Source of the DNA: Wickerhamiella versatilis
Taxonomy: Eukaryota
DNA: 64,000 bases
Assembly: GCA_030867685.1 (NCBI GenBank)
Contig: JAQOWU010000001.1
Coordinates: forward strand, 620,001 to 684,000
Direction: 5' to 3'
Of the stretch, positions 11,734 to 40,500 are shown in pieces. Position 1 is the first letter of the stretch; each line of letters starts with the position of its first letter. The translations under genes were made by a program, and so were the position numbers. The notes below the pieces were generated by a model. It was given only the letters and a program-made list of their open reading frames with translations, searched no databases and was not told the DNA's origin.

Positions 11734-12858
11734 ATGCCCTCAGAAGCGACGCGAGAAGTGGGGTCAATGTGGTCATTGCTAGCCATATTTATTGAAATTG
11801 CTGTTCTTGTAGCGCTAGGGCTCGTCACAAGATACACTATCCTTCATCGCAGCGGTCTCAGGGAGCCTGACCGATTGCACCGTATCTGGTCAAAAGCCCC
11901 TGAGATTCGGTACCAGCCCATTGAACATGTTATGATATTTGCAGTTTTTACAAGTTTTGGCGCACAGACAGTAATATTCTCGTTTGTTACAGCGCTCTGC
12001 AGCATTGTTGGCTTGGCTGATGAACATTCCGTGATCCTTGGTGCCATTTTTATGATCCTGAGCACAGGGATCAGCGCAGCTCTAGCAGTTTTAATATACC
12101 GAGCTGGTGGGGGTAAAGATGGCCGCACGGGATATCTGGCATCGTATGCCTTCAATATTGCAATGTACTATTTACTTGCCGTCGACCTGGGATTCTTTTA
12201 TAGACCTGCAAATGGGTTCAATGTTAGTTTCGCAAGCATAATAATATACGTTCTTTTGCCTCCGGTACTCATTATCGGTGCTCAGGCCCCTTTTGCCATT
12301 TGGGCGCTCCACCGTAAGCTGCCTGCCACGGCACGAAAAATGTACAATGAGGGCATAGTTCCGAATTGGGTTAAGCTGGACAGGTCAATTCTAGTGGCAG
12401 CAGCACCGCTCATGGTGTTCCATGTGATTGGACTCAGCATCCAGAACTACATCGGTTCCGAGACCTATCTTTCCCGGGTTGCCAGCTCGCTATCGATATT
12501 AATGCTTCTGTCCATATCCACCATCACATCCATCATAAGTGTGAATCGGGCACTCCTAGCAAATGAATTTCAATGGCAATGGCGAGCTTTCTTAACGCCA
12601 GCGATTCCGTTGGGAGTCCTGGACTTCATTATCCTTTCTTCACGCACGATATTTGGTAAATATCATTTCGTGCGATTCCTTTATCAGCTTCCCCATTTAA
12701 CCTTAAGCTATGGGTCATGTGGTGTCCTAGGTGCTTATATTTATCTCCTCCTCGCCGAACGCTATGTACGGAATCACGTAGATTTCGATGATGAAGCACA
12801 GACAGATCTTCTAAACGAGTATGAAGTCGATGAAGACAATGAAGAGCTTGATATCTAA
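11734..12858 (+). CDS. Multi-pass membrane protein, divergent nonaspanin (TM9SF/Emp70)-like, no luminal domain
   Basis: Many hydrophobic segments; NEFQWQWRAFLTPA resembles the TM9SF YxWxWRSF motif; paralog of the next gene. Confidence 0.6.
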   Translation: MPSEATREVGSMWSLLAIFIEIAVLVALGLVTRYTILHRSGLREPDRLHRIWSKAPEIRYQPIEHVMIFAVFTSFGAQTVIFSFVTALCSIVGLADEHSVILGAIFMILSTGISAALAVLIYRAGGGKDGRTGYLASYAFNIAMYYLLAVDLGFFYRPANGFNVSFASIIIYVLLPPVLIIGAQAPFAIWALHRKLPATARKMYNEGIVPNWVKLDRSILVAAAPLMVFHVIGLSIQNYIGSETYLSRVASSLSILMLLSISTITSIISVNRALLANEFQWQWRAFLTPAIPLGVLDFIILSSRTIFGKYHFVRFLYQLPHLTLSYGSCGVLGAYIYLLLAERYVRNHVDFDDEAQTDLLNEYEVDEDNEELDI

Positions 12859-13131: not shown

Positions 13132-14295
13132 ATGACCGCAACAATCGAGATACCAGAGGATAAGCCAGTGAATCCTATATGGCCCCTTCTGGCGATTTGT
13201 GTAGAAGCAATTTCCTTGGGATCCCTCCTCTTCTTCCTGAAATATACGGTGCGATACCGAAGTGGGCTGAATGAACCTGATAAGCTCAATCGGATCTGGT
13301 CCCGAGTGGCCCGAATCCGCTCGCAGCCAGTCAATCGGCCGTTGATATTTGCATTAGCGGTAGGATTGGGATCTCAGACCATGCTGGGTGAGCTGGTGAG
13401 CCCTATTTTTGCTGTTTTAGGGCTTTCTCCTGCGCACCCCAATATACTTGTAGGTATTGGACTCGTCATGGGCCTTATTTCACCGCTTATTAGTGCAGCC
13501 GTCGGCGTTTTGGTTTACAAGGCGGTTGGTGGTGAAGGCTGGCGCAACGTGCTCCTAGGAGGCTTTGGTGTTAATATCATTATGATGGCTTTCCTTGCCC
13601 CCACGATTGCCACCACAATGCAGGAGCAGGCTCAAGGTGAGTTGAGCGCACAAGCAATTATACTTATAGTAGCCATGAGCTGTGTCATTGCCGCAGCACT
13701 TATGGTTCTTTTCCAGCTCCCTATTGCAATTTGGGCAGGCCGACGCGAGGTGCCACCCACTGCTGAGTTGATTCCCAGCAGCCCATCCGAGAAGCCTTCT
13801 GCCAAGATGGATAAAACTCTTCTAATCGTTTCAGCTCCCCTTGTCTTGTTTTATTTGTTGGGCCTCGTGACGTATCTCAAGGTGGGATCTGGAACCTACT
13901 TGGCCCGTGTCGCTACCTCGTGCACAAGCTGGATCCATATAGCTGTGGCAAGCATTAGTGCAATCTTTGGAGTGAACCGTGGCCTTTTTGCGAACCAGTA
14001 CCAATGGCAATGGCGGGCATTCTTGACTCCTGCAATCCCCCTGTTTGTTCTGGAATTGGTTTTCGTTATCATAGCTGCATTGTTCAGCAACGCGCCCTTT
14101 GGATTTTTGACAGTCATGCTCTTTAGTGATTTTGCAGTAAATGGTTCATATGGTGTTCTTGGCACGTATGCCTACCTCACCCTTGCCGAGCGCTACGCTA
14201 AGACGAACGCATTTTTATCTGGTGATAACCAACCCCAGCCAGAAATGGCTTCACGTTATGAGACAAGTGAGTATGATGCGCCAACAGGCTGGTAG
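13132..14295 (+). CDS. Tandem paralog, nonaspanin (TM9SF/Emp70)-like membrane protein
   Basis: Shared RSGL.EPD.L.RIWS, TYL.RVA, QWQWRAFLTPAIPL, GVLG.Y.YL.LAERY; ATG at 13132. Confidence 0.6.
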   Translation: MTATIEIPEDKPVNPIWPLLAICVEAISLGSLLFFLKYTVRYRSGLNEPDKLNRIWSRVARIRSQPVNRPLIFALAVGLGSQTMLGELVSPIFAVLGLSPAHPNILVGIGLVMGLISPLISAAVGVLVYKAVGGEGWRNVLLGGFGVNIIMMAFLAPTIATTMQEQAQGELSAQAIILIVAMSCVIAAALMVLFQLPIAIWAGRREVPPTAELIPSSPSEKPSAKMDKTLLIVSAPLVLFYLLGLVTYLKVGSGTYLARVATSCTSWIHIAVASISAIFGVNRGLFANQYQWQWRAFLTPAIPLFVLELVFVIIAALFSNAPFGFLTVMLFSDFAVNGSYGVLGTYAYLTLAERYAKTNAFLSGDNQPQPEMASRYETSEYDAPTGW

Positions 14296-14833
14296 ACTCA
14301 CAACCTTCCAATCCAGCCTTTTAAAACTATTTTAAAATTTCTTATAGTACTACTTATTGTCGTATAAGTCCATACTGACCTGAATTATTCAAGCGCTAGG
14401 CAGGGCCCTCAGGGCCCACTTCTCCCTCCCCATGTCGCTATATGGAATACTAAGTTAAAGAATTTCCTAAGTTTTTTTTTACGTGTCGTATTTTCTTATT
14501 ATTTTAGACGATATTAATAGAAACCATAAACTATGCATCTTAATAATACAGGCACAGACAGGCGATCGATACGCACGTAGGTAATTTTATTTTACCGAGC
14601 GAAGTTGAGAAGTCAGGAACCGCTGGTTTCGCTACTAGTGCACTTGCTATAGACAAAACGATAGTAATTCAGGAGAAGATAACTAAAAAAATAAATACTG
14701 TTTGAAATTAATATATGCTAATGCTAATCTATAAGTTCAAAGACCCACCGAAGTGGAAATAAAATTGTTAGAGCTTCAGCAATGTTCACTAGGGGCACGC
14801 CTCATGCTTCATTCATGATACGAAACTCGTTCT

Positions 14834-14995
14834 TCAACGGAACAACTTCTTAATCTTAGAAGCCAACTTGTTCGGACGCTTGGGCTTGCTCGAGTCCTTC
14901 GACCATGAAGGCGACATCACGCTGTTCAGAGAAGCTTGGTTGTGTGGGGATAGCTTCTGGTTTCGCTCGAGTTGGAAATAGTACTGTGCAATCAT
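14834..14995 (-). CDS. 53-aa microprotein, copy 1: MIAQYYFQLERNQKLSPHNQASLNSVMSPSWSKDSSKPKRPNKLASKIKKLFR
   Basis: ATG in AAAC context, TGA stop; same length as copy 2, no indels, seven synonymous codon changes; TATA-like CATAAAAG ~40 nt upstream. Confidence 0.8.
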   Translation of the reverse strand: MIAQYYFQLERNQKLSPHNQASLNSVMSPSWSKDSSKPKRPNKLASKIKKLFR

Positions 14996-15735
14996 GTTTA
15001 TTTCGATATGCCAAAAAGGCCGGAAAAAGCTCGCCTTTTATGGGGGCGCGCCTCCTACGCGATTGATGAGCTAATCGTGCATGAACCACAGACCTAGCCC
15101 TGGAATATTGACCGTTGCCATTAGCGCTAAAATGGTGCCTGAAAGCCAAATAAATTTTTAGTAGGACTAAAAGGGATACTTATAAAGATAGAATTTTTAT
15201 TTTAAGCTTTTTTATTGCCAGAATAGCGAATTACACTTAGGGGCCACCCCACATGTATATTTGTCAGCGGTGTCACACTATGAAGTCGCTAAAAAAATCT
15301 AAAATACATGGGAAAAAAATATAAATGATCAGAATCTGTTTATATTGTCCATCCCAAATTATAGGCTATTTTTTTTTCCACTTTCGAACTTTCAACCGTC
15401 CACACGGTCGATATCTGGGTAGGGGAAGACGTTTGATGAGGCTGATGAACCAAATGGCTGGTAAATTAACATCCTCCTGGTCCCGCGTGACTATTATAGC
15501 CATAATATTTTATACGTCGAACTTATTCTGGGTTCCTTAAGGTCTATAGTCACTTGATTTGGTCAAGTGCGGTGTGTTCTCCCCTGATTGCTCATGTCAT
15601 CACGTAATGCTAATGCTAATTAGTACATAAAAAGACTATTTATAGGCCCACAAAGTGGAATTAAAATTGTTAGTGTTTTGAGAAACGGTCTTTGTGAGCA
15701 TGCTTCATGCTATATTCGTGATATGCGACTCGTTT

Positions 15736-15897
15736 TCACTGGAACCACTTCTTGACCTTAGAAGCCAATTTCTTCGAGTGCTTCGGCTTGCTTGAGCCCT
15801 TCGACCATGAAGGCGACATCACGCTGTTCAGAGAAGCTTGATTGTTCCGGGATAGCTTCTGGTTGTTCTCGAGTTGAAAATAGTATTGTGCGATCAT
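15736..15897 (-). CDS. 53-aa microprotein, copy 2: MIAQYYFQLENNQKLSRNNQASLNSVMSPSWSKGSSKPKHSKKLASKVKKWFQ
   Basis: 43/53 aa identical to copy 1; start and stop positions conserved. Confidence 0.8.
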   Translation of the reverse strand: MIAQYYFQLENNQKLSRNNQASLNSVMSPSWSKGSSKPKHSKKLASKVKKWFQ

Positions 15898-16371
15898 GAT
15901 TATTTGGATATGCTAAAAACGCCGGAAAAAGCTCGCCTTTTATGGTGCGCGCCACCCACGCGAGCGATGACCTAATCATGCATAAAGTACCGATCCTAGC
16001 CCTGAACTAACGGTCTTCACCATTAGCGCTAAAATGGTGCCTGAAGGCCAAATAAATTTATAGTAGGACTAAAAGGGATACTTATAAAGATAGAATTTTT
16101 ATTTTAAGCTTTCTTATTGCCAGAATAGCGAATTACGCTTAAGAGAACCCCCACGTGTATATTTGTCAGCGGTGTCACGGTATAACGTCGCTAAAAAATC
16201 TAAAATACATGGGAAAAAAATATAAATGATCAGAATATGTTTAAACTGTCCATCCCAAATTATAGGCTATTTTTTTTGCGGGTTTCGTACCCCCAACCTT
16301 CGACACGGTCGACCTCTGAGCAAGAGGGGTCCTTACTGCTGCCACTGAGCCCTCGAATGATCTAAATAATA

Positions 16372-17907
16372 CTATGCACCACCAAATTGCCTCATCATGT
16401 TGCGGAACATCGGATTGTTCTGTACATTTTTCATCATGTCACCAATATTAGGCATGCCACCCTGCCCACCCAGCAGCTGTGACATGTCTGGCATACCATT
16501 TGGACCGCCGCCACCCATCTGTTGCTGCATCTGGGCCATTCTCCGACGCATAAGTTCTGCTTGAGGACCTTTAGCATTCTGCATTTGCCGCATTTTATCC
16601 ATTACTCCACCTTGACCTCCCATCTTGGATGCCATCTTAGCCATCACCTTCTGCTGGTACAAAACCTCCTCCACCTCACGTACCGAAGTACCAGAGCCTC
16701 GTGCAACCCTCACGGTCCGTGTGGGCTGTGTGCGGAACATTGATCCATCCGAGTCCAACTCCTTCTCCGTCATTGAATCCATAATATAAATCATGTTCTT
16801 TAGTCTTGCGTTAGAATCGTCCCCGGACAACTGGTCTGCGAACTGGCTCATGCCTGGAATCATCGATGCCACCTTCGAGAGTGGGCCCATCTTCATGATA
16901 TTCTGCATCTGGCTCCTCAGGTCCCGCAGCGTGAAGATACCCTGCTGAATGTTTTTGAACGTGTCCTTCTGGTCGAGTTTCAGGGTTTGCACATGCTCCA
17001 TTAGACCTTGGATATCACCGATACCCAGGAGCTTGGAGACGAACTGTTGAGGTGCAAACGTCTCGAGGTCGTATATGTGCTCACCGGTTCCGATGAATGC
17101 AATAGGGGTGTGGGTTGCTGCCACGGCAGAGATGGCACCACCACCTTTAGCATGCCCGTCCATTTTTGTCAAAATAAGAGCACCAAAGTCAGCCGCTTCC
17201 TTGAAAGCGAGGGCCTGGGACTCAGCGGCCTGACCGATGGAGGCATCCAGAACCATGAGGGTCTGGGTGGGACGCACAGCCCGGGAGATTTGGATCATTT
17301 CCTCAAACAAGTCGGCCTCCTGACGGTGACGACCTGACGTATCAACAATGATAAAGTCGAACTTATCCTTCTTGAACTTCTCAACACCATCGTGGGCAAC
17401 CACAACCGGGTCTGGCTCCGTGTATGACCCGTAGAATGGGATACGTGCCCGGGTAGCGTTCTGCTTCAGCTGGTCGAATGCACCAGCACGGAAGGTATCT
17501 GCACAAACCAATCCGACCTTGAATCCGCGGCGCTGGTAGTATACCGCCAGCTTCGTACAGGTCGTGGTTTTACCCGCACCTTGCAGACCGACAAACATGA
17601 CCACATTTGGATGATGTTTCTGGGGCTTCCAAGGAGCAACTCCCGTGTCCACCAGGGCCACGAGCTGGTCGAAGACCGCCTTCTGCACCACCCGTTTTCG
17701 CTGCTGGGGCGGAGTTTCAGCAAGGTTTACCGAGCGCTTAATATTTCCCTTCAGCTGGGCAACAAGCTTCAGCCCCACATCGTGCTGCAGCAATGCCAGG
17801 CTCATGTCGTTGAGCATTTTATCCAGAGCAGCATCATCAACGTCACCCTGGCGGCCCAACTGGCCGATCGCCTGGTTAATGCTTCGGCCCAGGTCTGCGA
17901 GCACCAT
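16372..17907 (-). CDS. SRP54: Signal recognition particle 54 kDa subunit
   Basis: [41 protein letters not shown], Met-rich M domain. Confidence 0.98.
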
Positions 17908-37968: not shown

Positions 37969-39105
37969 ATGCCTACTCCTCAAGAGAGACTTGCTCAGTT
38001 GCGTGGAAATCAAGACGCACCAGCATCGGTAGCATCCAAATATAACAAAAGGTTCCGTGTAGGTGTCATTGGTTCTGGTAACTGGGGTACGGCAGTCGCG
38101 AAGATTGTCGCCGAAAACTGCCTGGAAAAGCCATATTTGTTCCACCGTGATGTGAAGATGTGGGTTCGTGAGGAAGAGGTCTCTGACATGAAGCTGACGG
38201 ACATCATTAATTCCTACCATGAGAACGTGAAGTACTTGCCGGAGGTAACTCTGCCATTTAATCTGTTTGCTGAGCCAGACATTCGCAAGGTTGCTGATGG
38301 TGCAGACCTGCTGGTTATCAATCTGCCCCACCAGTTCTTGGGGTCAGTATGCGACCAGATGAAGGGCATCGACTTCTCTAAGTCCTCAGCCATTTCTTGT
38401 CTAAAGGGTATCAATGTATCTGCAGATGGTGTGGAGCTTCTTCATGATGTCGTGGAAAAGAAGCTTGGCTTGCATTGCGGTGTCCTGAGTGGTGCGAATA
38501 TTGCGTCCGAGGTGGCCCGTGAACGTTGGTCTGAGACCACCATTGCCTTCCCATTGCCTTCGTGGTACCAGCAGGGCGATGCTGATGAGAATCTTATCAA
38601 GGAGTTGTTCTACAGGCCCTATTTCCATGTCCAAGTATCAGATGATGTGTGTGGTGCGTCAATTAGCGGTGCACTTAAGAACGTGGTCGCTCTTGGCGCA
38701 GGTCTTGTTGAGGGCGCAGGCTGGGGTGATAATGCCAAGGCTGCTGTCATGCGTCGTGGCTTGCTCGAAATGATCAAGTTCGGTAACGTTTTCTTCCCAG
38801 GTAAGTGCCGCCCAGAGACCTTCACCACTGAATCGGCAGGTGTGGCCGATTTGATCACCTCGTGTGCTGGTGGACGTAACGTCAAGGTTGGACGTGCATT
38901 TGCTCGTACAGGCAAGCCACTTGAGGTCATCGAGAAGGAGCTCCTGAACGGCCAGTCAGCCCAGGGTATTATCACCGGACGTGAGGTGATGGAGCTTCTA
39001 ACGGCAACCAAGAAGGAGGACGAGTTCCCTCTGCTCGGTGCTATTTACGATATTGTGCATAACAAGTTGCACATCTCAAATCTGCCAGAGCGGATCGCAG
39101 ACTAA
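37969..39105 (+). CDS. GPD1: NAD-dependent glycerol-3-phosphate dehydrogenase, copy 1
   Basis: VIGSGNWGTAVAK, GALKNVVALGAG, GVADLITSC.GGRN, LLNGQSAQG; ATG at 37969. Confidence 0.93.
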   Translation: MPTPQERLAQLRGNQDAPASVASKYNKRFRVGVIGSGNWGTAVAKIVAENCLEKPYLFHRDVKMWVREEEVSDMKLTDIINSYHENVKYLPEVTLPFNLFAEPDIRKVADGADLLVINLPHQFLGSVCDQMKGIDFSKSSAISCLKGINVSADGVELLHDVVEKKLGLHCGVLSGANIASEVARERWSETTIAFPLPSWYQQGDADENLIKELFYRPYFHVQVSDDVCGASISGALKNVVALGAGLVEGAGWGDNAKAAVMRRGLLEMIKFGNVFFPGKCRPETFTTESAGVADLITSCAGGRNVKVGRAFARTGKPLEVIEKELLNGQSAQGIITGREVMELLTATKKEDEFPLLGAIYDIVHNKLHISNLPERIAD

Positions 39106-39363: not shown

Positions 39364-40500
39364 ATGGTTTCTACAGCTCTTGAGAGACTACAAGCATTGC
39401 AAGGGAGCTTGCGGGCAGTTGACAATGTTGCTAAAAACTATCGTAAGAAGTTTCGGATAGCCGTTATTGGCTCAGGCAACTGGGGTACTGCCGTTGCAAA
39501 GATCGTGGCCGAGAATGCGGCTGAGAAGAAGTCGTTGTTCGAGCACGAGGTTCGTATGTGGGTACGTCAGGAGAAAGTTGGTGATATGAATCTCACAGAT
39601 ATCATCAACCTGCATCACGAAAATGTTAGATACCTCCCAGAGGTGAGGCTTCCTGATAACCTTGTTGCTGATCCCGAAATTCGAAACGTTGCTGAGGGTG
39701 CGGACCTCCTAGTTTTTAACCTGCCTCACCAGTTCCTAGGGTCAGTCTGCGATCAGATGAAGGGAATCGACTTCTCTAGATCCTCCGCGATATCATGCCT
39801 CAAAGGTCTCAATGTCTCTGCACAGGGTGTGGAGCTTCTTAGCAATGTTGTTGAGGAAAAATTGGGCCTTCATTGTGGTGTTTTGAGCGGTGCCAACATC
39901 GCCTCCGAGGTGGCCCGTGAGAAATGGTGTGAAACCACTGTGGCCTACCCGTTACCTAAGTGGTATAAGCCAGGCGAAATTGATGAAGACCTCATTAAGG
40001 CGCTCTTCCACCGACCTTATTTCCATGTGCAGGTATCCTCAGACACTGCAGGTGTTTCCATTGGTGGTGCGCTGAAGAACGTGGTGGCCATTGGAGCTGG
40101 TCTTGTGGAAGGTGCAGGTTGGGGTGACAATGCCAAAGCTGCTGTCATGCGACGTGGAATTCTTGAGATGATCAAGTTTGGCGTAACGTTTTTCCCTGGA
40201 ACTCTCCCAGAGACCTTTACGAACGAGTCCGCCGGTGTTGCCGATCTAATCACGTCATGTGCAGGAGGTCGCAACGTGAAGGTTGGTCGCGCATTTGCTC
40301 GTACCGGTAAGCCTCTGGAGGAAATCGAGAAAGAACTTCTGAATGGACAATCTGCCCAGGGAATAATTACAGCCCGTGAAGTACATGAGCTCCTGAGTGA
40401 AAAGAACATGCTTAACGAATTTCCACTTCTTGTTGCTATCTACGAAGTAGCTCATGGAAAGTTGCATATATCCCAACTTCCTGATCGCATAGCGGACTGA
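39364..40500 (+). CDS. NAD-dependent glycerol-3-phosphate dehydrogenase, tandem copy 2
   Basis: Same motifs; closely similar to the upstream copy. Confidence 0.93.
   Translation: MVSTALERLQALQGSLRAVDNVAKNYRKKFRIAVIGSGNWGTAVAKIVAENAAEKKSLFEHEVRMWVRQEKVGDMNLTDIINLHHENVRYLPEVRLPDNLVADPEIRNVAEGADLLVFNLPHQFLGSVCDQMKGIDFSRSSAISCLKGLNVSAQGVELLSNVVEEKLGLHCGVLSGANIASEVAREKWCETTVAYPLPKWYKPGEIDEDLIKALFHRPYFHVQVSSDTAGVSIGGALKNVVAIGAGLVEGAGWGDNAKAAVMRRGILEMIKFGVTFFPGTLPETFTNESAGVADLITSCAGGRNVKVGRAFARTGKPLEEIEKELLNGQSAQGIITAREVHELLSEKNMLNEFPLLVAIYEVAHGKLHISQLPDRIAD

Follow-up and report, generated by a model that had tools for sequence, protein, structure and literature searches.

The window analysed here is a stretch of 64,000 nucleotides from the genome of Wickerhamiella versatilis. 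Two short genes lie in tandem on its minus strand, flanked by a pair of EMP70-like genes and by SRP54, and each has the coding capacity for a microprotein of 53 amino acids (Table 1). The original prediction described two ATG-to-TGA frames of 162 nt without indels. Both were located, and a recount returned exactly the 43 identical residues out of 53 and the seven silent codons that it had named; the indels that it reported for the flanks are also seen in our alignment of the duplicated units.

Table 1. Coordinates of the microprotein genes and associated features (positions in the window unless a contig is given)
Feature	Position	Strand	Details
Copy 1 CDS	14834..14995	-	162 nt, ATG to TGA, 53 aa (P0001), pI 10.6, net charge +9
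Copy 2 CDS	15736..15897	-	162 nt, ATG to TGA, 53 aa (P0002), pI 10.4, net charge +9
Copy 3 CDS	G000:C7:39213-39374 (L008:214-375)	+	intact 53-codon ORF
Copy 1, codons 36-53	14837..14890	-	basic cluster, then amphipathic helix 43-52
Copy 1 transcript	14711..15013	-	5′ ends 15009 and 15013 (598 and 757 loose-end reads)
Copy 2 transcript	15603..15911	-	5′ ends 15909 and 15911 (126 and 2981 reads)
TATA-like box, copy 1	15036..15042	-	CATAAAA, 47 nt before ATG, ~30 nt before 5′ ends
TATA-like box, copy 2	15938..15944	-	47 nt before ATG
Upstream block, copy 1	15301..15340	-	-345 to -306, 40 bp
Upstream block, copy 2	16202..16241	-	beneath the 3′ end of the SRP54 transcript
Upstream block, copy 3	G000:C7 ~38870-38910		
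Duplicated unit 1	14741..15417		gene plus ~420 bp of upstream DNA; 84.7% identity to unit 2 over 679 columns
Duplicated unit 2	15644..16318		offset 901-902 bp from unit 1
SRP54	16372..17907	-	neighbour, expression yardstick; outside the duplicated unit

The EMP70 (TM9)-like genes that adjoin the microprotein pair (11734-12858 and 13132-14295, plus strand) form a second tandem duplication at the locus. They are short, divergent and 37% identical to each other, and their match to the Pfam model is confined to its membrane half. Further along the window, two genes for a 378-aa NAD-dependent glycerol-3-phosphate dehydrogenase lie 258 bp apart (37969-39105 and 39364-40500, plus strand); such a pair would fit the salt-tolerant Candida (Wickerhamiella) versatilis. 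Elsewhere in the genome, a bacterial-type entE scores above the curated cut-off (G000:C1:802578-804155), and this horizontally acquired siderophore gene has been described as characteristic of yeasts in the Wickerhamiella/Starmerella clade (bioRxiv 10.1101/399394).

Gene copies and selection on the reading frame

The alignment of copies 1 and 2 is gapless across the ORF. They differ at 23 nucleotides, with 4, 6 and 13 changes at the first, second and third codon positions respectively, and at 17 codons, seven of which (codons 2, 4, 7, 19, 35, 38 and 43) differ purely silently. A paralog search over the species' own genome (9.88 Mb in 8 contigs) returned the same three matches for each of the queries P0001 and P0003, so that on the scoring of the best candidates the family has at least three copies. 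Copy 3 is 62-66% identical to the tandem copies (62% to copy 1) and also carries ~420 bp of homologous upstream DNA; the unit that hosts it (G000:C7:38789-39352) is 71.6% identical to unit 2 over 571 columns. It sits 39 kb from a contig end, with a GNAT acetyltransferase gene on one side and, on the other, a gene that reads from its sequence as zinc-cluster-like. Nearby, an 84-aa ORF (L007:8084-8338) and several short ORFs (L007:1-2292) resemble the fragments of decayed genes. The best explanation for this arrangement is that copy 3 derives from an old duplication and the tandem pair from a younger one, which copied the gene together with its promoter.

How well is the frame conserved? Nei-Gojobori dN/dS is 0.24 for copies 1 and 2, 0.29 for copies 1 and 3 and 0.32 for copies 2 and 3 (Fisher p 0.0018, 0.0008 and 0.0027; dS 0.44, 1.14 and 0.88), estimates that come from paralogs of one genome and from pairs that are not independent of each other. 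All three pairs bear the mark of purifying selection, the three copies are equal in length, and the values correspond to modest constraint. The other five frames of the tandem pair have dN/dS of 0.45-3.2. When the observed substitutions were placed at random, the frame stayed intact and the identity as high as observed in 0.4%, 0.005% and 0 of 20,000 trials for the three pairs (for copies 1 and 2 this meant an unbroken frame with at least 43 identities). GC3 is 0.67 and 0.69 in copies 1 and 2, higher than in 33 of the 34 genes in the window, and the flanks have 35-40% GC. The constraint is not significant for the C-terminal third alone when compared with copy 3 (p 0.10 and 0.18). Among the differences listed for other strains, at least eight fall within the ORFs, and of these eight four are silent and four residue-changing. 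The listing also has eight indels, all of them outside the two ORFs, and none of the listed differences places a stop inside either ORF. An antisense ORF, also of 53 aa (14905-15066, plus strand), was considered and rejected, as it is only 30 aa long in unit 2 and has a dN/dS of 0.99.

Between copies 1 and 2, some stretches of the upstream flank are more similar than the ORF is, with 45-49 identities per 50 nucleotides versus 43-44, so an argument of the form 'ORF conserved, flanks not' does not carry the case at this locus. The case for coding rests instead on how the codons differ and on the RNA evidence. Taken together, the gene is very probably protein-coding, and the codon comparison indicates that purifying selection keeps all three copies intact.

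Transcripts, promoters and the upstream block

Four of 17 sequencing runs were mapped, X3, X11, X12 and X15 among them. X12 and X15, from two studies, are raw-read RNA runs, and in both of them separate peaks lie over the two ORFs, with a depth near zero in between. Each tandem copy has a transcript of ~300 nt without a splice joint. The far end of the copy 1 transcript falls at ~14711 (X15) or 14777 (X12), with thin coverage to ~14620, and those of copy 2 fall at ~15638 and 15603 (X15) and 15591 (X12). Although the libraries carry no strand information, loose ends on the reads of X15, which we take to be the template-switch oligo, assign the 5′ ends to the minus strand. The 5′ ends of both copies lie 12-18 nt ahead of an ATG that is the first in its transcript and has an A at -3. 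Copies 1 and 2 are therefore each represented by a transcript of their own with the ORF at its first ATG, an outcome that 1.7% of shuffled transcripts reproduce.

Relative to the SRP54 coding bins, the two peaks in X15 reach a depth of 24x and 52x, and those in X12 a depth of 1.7x and 2.4x. This difference is confounded by strain, library type and the shortness of the transcripts, and regulation of the tandem copies is only hinted at. In addition, a 226-nt contig from X3, a food-fermentation metatranscriptome, spans 15684-15896 with zero differences; it is the sole contig placed on a 2.5-kb stretch, and it may derive from DNA.

The TATA-like boxes of the tandem copies (Table 1) have a counterpart at -49 in the C7 copy. 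A spacing of ~30 nt between TATA and the 5′ ends matches the classic-model, Yarrowia-type initiation outlined in PMC7849388. The SRP54 transcript extends ~250-280 nt beyond its stop (16090-16372), into the upstream region of copy 2, and this read-through may interfere with the copy 2 promoter. A short TAATGC repeat lies near the 3′ ends of both microprotein transcripts (15605-15620 and 14715-14727) and is perhaps part of a 3′ processing signal. A joint from 15044 to 15955, skipping 910 nt, was seen in X11 and X15. We rejected splicing as its cause because the joint is also present in a contig run and both ORFs are covered in the runs that show it. It probably reflects reads from alleles of unit 2 that resemble unit 1, although other strains may carry a recombinant or a deletion allele.

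The most conserved DNA in the three units lies further upstream. A block of 40 bp is identical at 39, 38 and 37 positions between the copies, compared with 139, 110 and 116 of 162 positions for the ORF. It exceeds the identity of the ORF, and greatly exceeds that of the synonymous sites (binomial p ~4e-4 with the identity of the ORF as baseline and 11 windows allowed for). A 28-mer from the block occurs at three loci only in the genome, allowing for up to 3 mismatches, and an upstream pattern has 0 matches in metagenome contigs. An 11-nt motif from the block shows no genome-wide enrichment (6 matches versus 11 control matches). The block includes a sequence that fits the S. cerevisiae origin consensus, for which the window has 5 matches. 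We consider the block to be probably cis-regulatory and most likely an upstream activating sequence, although it could possibly be an origin, a terminator or the product of local gene conversion. The block also provides a lead to an uncharacterised regulon.

Could the DNA or a non-coding RNA be the functional unit here, for example a duplicated cis-element, an origin or a lncRNA, with the ORF as a passenger? The identity of the block, above that of the ORF in all pairs, is what one would expect in that case, as is the stretch of codons 25-31, which is DNA-identical in the three copies. That said, another strain has a silent change at codon 26, within the identical stretch, and dN/dS is below 0.35 in every pair for this frame only. 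RNA is found over the ORF and not over the block, where the depth in unit 1 is 2-9, almost no coverage, although RNAs without poly(A) may escape the libraries used. The block has no Rfam match (0 at E 5) and no covariation support: 1 of 46 predicted pairs covaries among the three sequences, and the covariation term is unfavourable. We regard a non-coding function of this kind as very improbable, and continue with the frame as a gene for a protein.

Peptide anatomy and the search for relatives

The three proteins have masses of 6.1-6.2 kDa and a pI of 9.5-10.6. In copies 1 and 2 the hydropathy of the best 19-residue stretch is -0.58 and -0.69, which leaves neither a signal-peptide core nor a membrane span, and these two copies are free of Cys and hence of a CaaX box. 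No internal repeat was found in a check for pheromone-like architecture, so the features of fungal peptide pheromones, either CaaX or a signal peptide with repeated mature units, are lacking. This agrees with the original prediction, which had excluded a signal peptide and CaaX.

That prediction also named invariant blocks, and here the third copy calls for a revision. The conserved N-terminal and middle stretches hold up, but copy 3 narrows them to 12 of residues 1-14, including YYF at 5-7, and to every residue of 25-32. The middle motif is SVMSPSWS, with Ser28-Pro29 present in all copies. The tail, unlike these near-invariant stretches, conserves a pattern rather than letters. In copy 1 the helix at 43-52 places L44, I48, L51 and F52 on one face and lysines on the opposite one. 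The hydrophobic moment of the last 11 residues is 0.76, 0.68 and 0.70 in copies 1, 2 and 3 (shuffle p 0.01-0.03), and the last 18 residues have a net charge of +8, +7 and +4. The tail of copy 3 is the weaker one, with Asp50 and His51. A comparable tail profile is reached by 0 of 41 ORFs longer than 150 aa in the window and by 3 of 182 ORFs of 40-70 aa, two of which are the genes described here, under thresholds that were chosen after the peptides were known. AF2, run with three sequences, predicts helices at 2-14, 17-26 and 43-51 and coil at 27-42, with a mean pLDDT of 64 and a pTM of 0.25. A homodimer prediction that used no alignment (score 0.00) is counted neither for nor against self-association, and a Foldseek search with the low-confidence model gave 0 matches. 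The cationic amphipathic helix proposed for the C-terminus is thus upheld as a property of the sequence, with modest confidence in the AF2 helix.

Such a helix would also suit a membrane-active antimicrobial peptide, exported without a signal peptide. We think this most unlikely: the helix is only ~10 residues long, the strongest conservation lies outside it, and copies 1 and 2 have neither a signal-peptide core nor Cys.

Alternatively, the product could be a bulk protectant, an abundant disordered stress peptide of the hydrophilin or Hsp12 kind that shields membranes or proteins in a high-salt or high-sugar niche and has no specific partner. Copies 1 and 2 are very hydrophilic (GRAVY -1.0 and -1.03; -0.54 in copy 3), the mRNA is abundant, and one contig comes from a food-fermentation metatranscriptome. 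The transcript level relative to SRP54 also differs 10-20-fold across the two studies, though strain and library type confound that difference. Hydrophilins are defined by a Gly content above ~6% together with high hydrophilicity, and at 0-1.9% Gly the peptides fall far below this and outside the class. STRE-type sites common to all three promoters were not found, and the two motifs conserved by letter point to specific binding. On balance a protectant role is improbable.

Database searches with the peptides returned no relatives. There were 0 families in Pfam for the three proteins (E 0.1), 0 matches in NCBIfam and 0 among PDB sequences at E 10. A word-index search of 5.8 billion clustered proteins gave 1 candidate near the right length and 163 longer ones, none at E 10, and a HMMER profile found 0 matches at E 0.001 among 1.84 billion representatives. 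The best Atlas score, 0.75, is below the lead threshold, with no usable named match. Pattern matches in metagenome contigs (402) and viral contigs (133) yielded 0 confirmed cases each, and there was no match in plasmids. Of 23 candidates in prokaryote genomes one remained, matching over 16 residues in a Bacillota MAG (L012); we judged it to be a chance hit, as its E-value takes only the candidates selected beforehand into account.

A query of 53 aa has little search power. None of the three proteins is in a collection of 15 billion proteins that holds all 12 of the neighbouring proteins looked up, as expected for genes under its length cut-off. The collections are poor in yeast genomes and in called small ORFs, and absence from other yeasts does not follow from these results. 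In the literature we found no mention of three motifs from the peptides, although subscription papers or bioRxiv supplements could list the gene, and one motif had 0 matches in the 11 searchable supplementary files (16 in total) of a paper on the clade (PMC13376923).

The suggestion that this is a real and previously undescribed microprotein family is therefore borne out by selection in three paralogs, by the separate transcripts of the two tandem copies and by the lack of a family match, the check for a characterised family in Pfam, NCBIfam, PDB and the protein collections having come back empty. It is very probably a real new family, inside the known class of small yeast proteins missed by annotation.

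Possible function and comparison with known systems

What might such a peptide do? We propose, by analogy, that the mRNA is translated into an intracellular 53-aa peptide that would be disordered over most of its length. At its free C-terminus, the basic cluster and the amphipathic helix would grip an anionic membrane, in all likelihood the plasma membrane on its inner face. The N-terminal aromatic motif and SVMSPSWS would dock a protein partner, and Ser28-Pro29 may serve as a kinase switch. Tethered to the membrane in this way, and with its transcription tightly controlled, the small peptide could act as an adaptor or an inhibitor. That the N-terminal and middle motifs are conserved letter by letter speaks for a specific partner. 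A lone short basic helix might, however, bind membrane weakly, and its pattern may fit other targets too. We hold this scheme as a whole to be plausible but tentative.

A narrower version, in which a clade-specific, free-standing and membrane-anchored switch peptide combines an Ist2/Seg1-like tail with a new docking motif, is retained in three copies along with the unusually constrained upstream block and tunes a plasma-membrane or stress-signalling protein, is speculative and on present evidence unlikely. If true, the switch peptide would underlie part of the salt or sugar tolerance of the osmotolerant Wickerhamiella and Starmerella yeasts.

Basic amphipathic helices also serve as import or nucleic-acid-binding signals. 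The microprotein may be real and act inside an organelle, its tail being a nuclear, nucleolar, ribosome/RNA or C-terminal mitochondrial signal. The net charge of +9, the two lysine clusters within residues 33-50 and the disordered middle region in the AF2 model are all compatible with this. A plain basic nuclear signal has no need of the alternating hydrophobic and basic faces that are found in all three copies, and the first basic cluster is partly gone in copy 3. We consider this reading rather doubtful.

Another option is a soluble regulatory peptide with a C-terminal helix that binds protein and not lipid, either as a calmodulin-type ligand or as a pseudosubstrate of a kinase, phosphatase or ubiquitin ligase. 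The invariant YYF at residues 5-7 is loosely like Roq1, a protein that is not known to have a basic C-terminal helix. In Roq1 a YYFV motif binds Ubr1, and recognisable homologs are confined to closely related fungi (PMC11914429). Calmodulin and lipids are both described as possible ligands of basic amphipathic helices (PMC3814058). The Roq1 motif is preceded by a cleavage-exposed Arg and a linker (32 residues, with 15 still sufficient in vitro; PMC11914429); in the microproteins the motif begins at residue 5 with no preceding Arg, and a three-letter match is weak. A soluble regulator is, in our view, rather unlikely.

The membrane-binding scheme that we favour has its closest models in yeast proteins with basic tails. 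In Seg1, a basic stretch made up of the last 18-20 residues binds anionic liposomes and directs targeting to the plasma membrane (PMC3413353). The lipid-binding signal of Ist2 depends on an amphipathic helix, which is essential (PMC3814058). As described there, Seg1/Seg2, S. pombe Sle1 and Ist2 share with the microproteins a free basic C-terminus, and Ist2 also a short amphipathic helix. The basic cluster, amphipathic helix and free C-terminus are all present here, in a weaker form in copy 3. No sequence homology to these proteins was found, and the likeness is one of sequence pattern only. The microproteins contain no Eisosome1 or anoctamin domain (Pfam, E 0.1), and the genome's members of these families lie elsewhere. 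Its Ist2-like anoctamin, a 626-codon open frame (L017:1423-3303, G000:C8), ends without a long basic tail, and its Eisosome1-domain protein (L016:727-3519, G000:C8) has an acidic end, so the comparison with Ist2 and Seg1 is without in-genome support. There is also a difference in architecture. The tails of Seg1/Seg2, Sle1 and Ist2 end a large coiled-coil or membrane protein, whereas here the tail makes up one third of a free 53-aa peptide.

Other known systems resemble the microproteins in part. Hydrophilins and Hsp12 are likewise short, hydrophilic and probably disordered, with an abundant mRNA and a possible amphipathic helix; the microproteins differ in their low Gly content, their strongly basic character and their lack of a Pfam match. 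Roq1 (YJL144W), as described in PMC11914429, is also small, disordered and narrowly distributed and contains a YYF-bearing hydrophobic motif, but the microproteins are half its length, and their motif is preceded by neither a cleavage site nor an N-terminal Arg.

No principle is overturned by these genes, which are known here from sequence and RNA. They are nevertheless among the strongest transcripts at the locus, under selection and present in three copies, yet were missed by annotation, and at 53 aa they offer a small testable case of lineage-restricted microproteins gaining function in non-model yeasts. Unannotated small-ORF proteins under purifying selection are a known class in yeast (PMC12482700). 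Like the members described there, the microproteins have fewer than 100 codons, escape gene callers, evolve under purifying selection and show homology only at close range. What sets them apart is that the family has three copies, with promoters of their own, in a clade outside the model yeasts.
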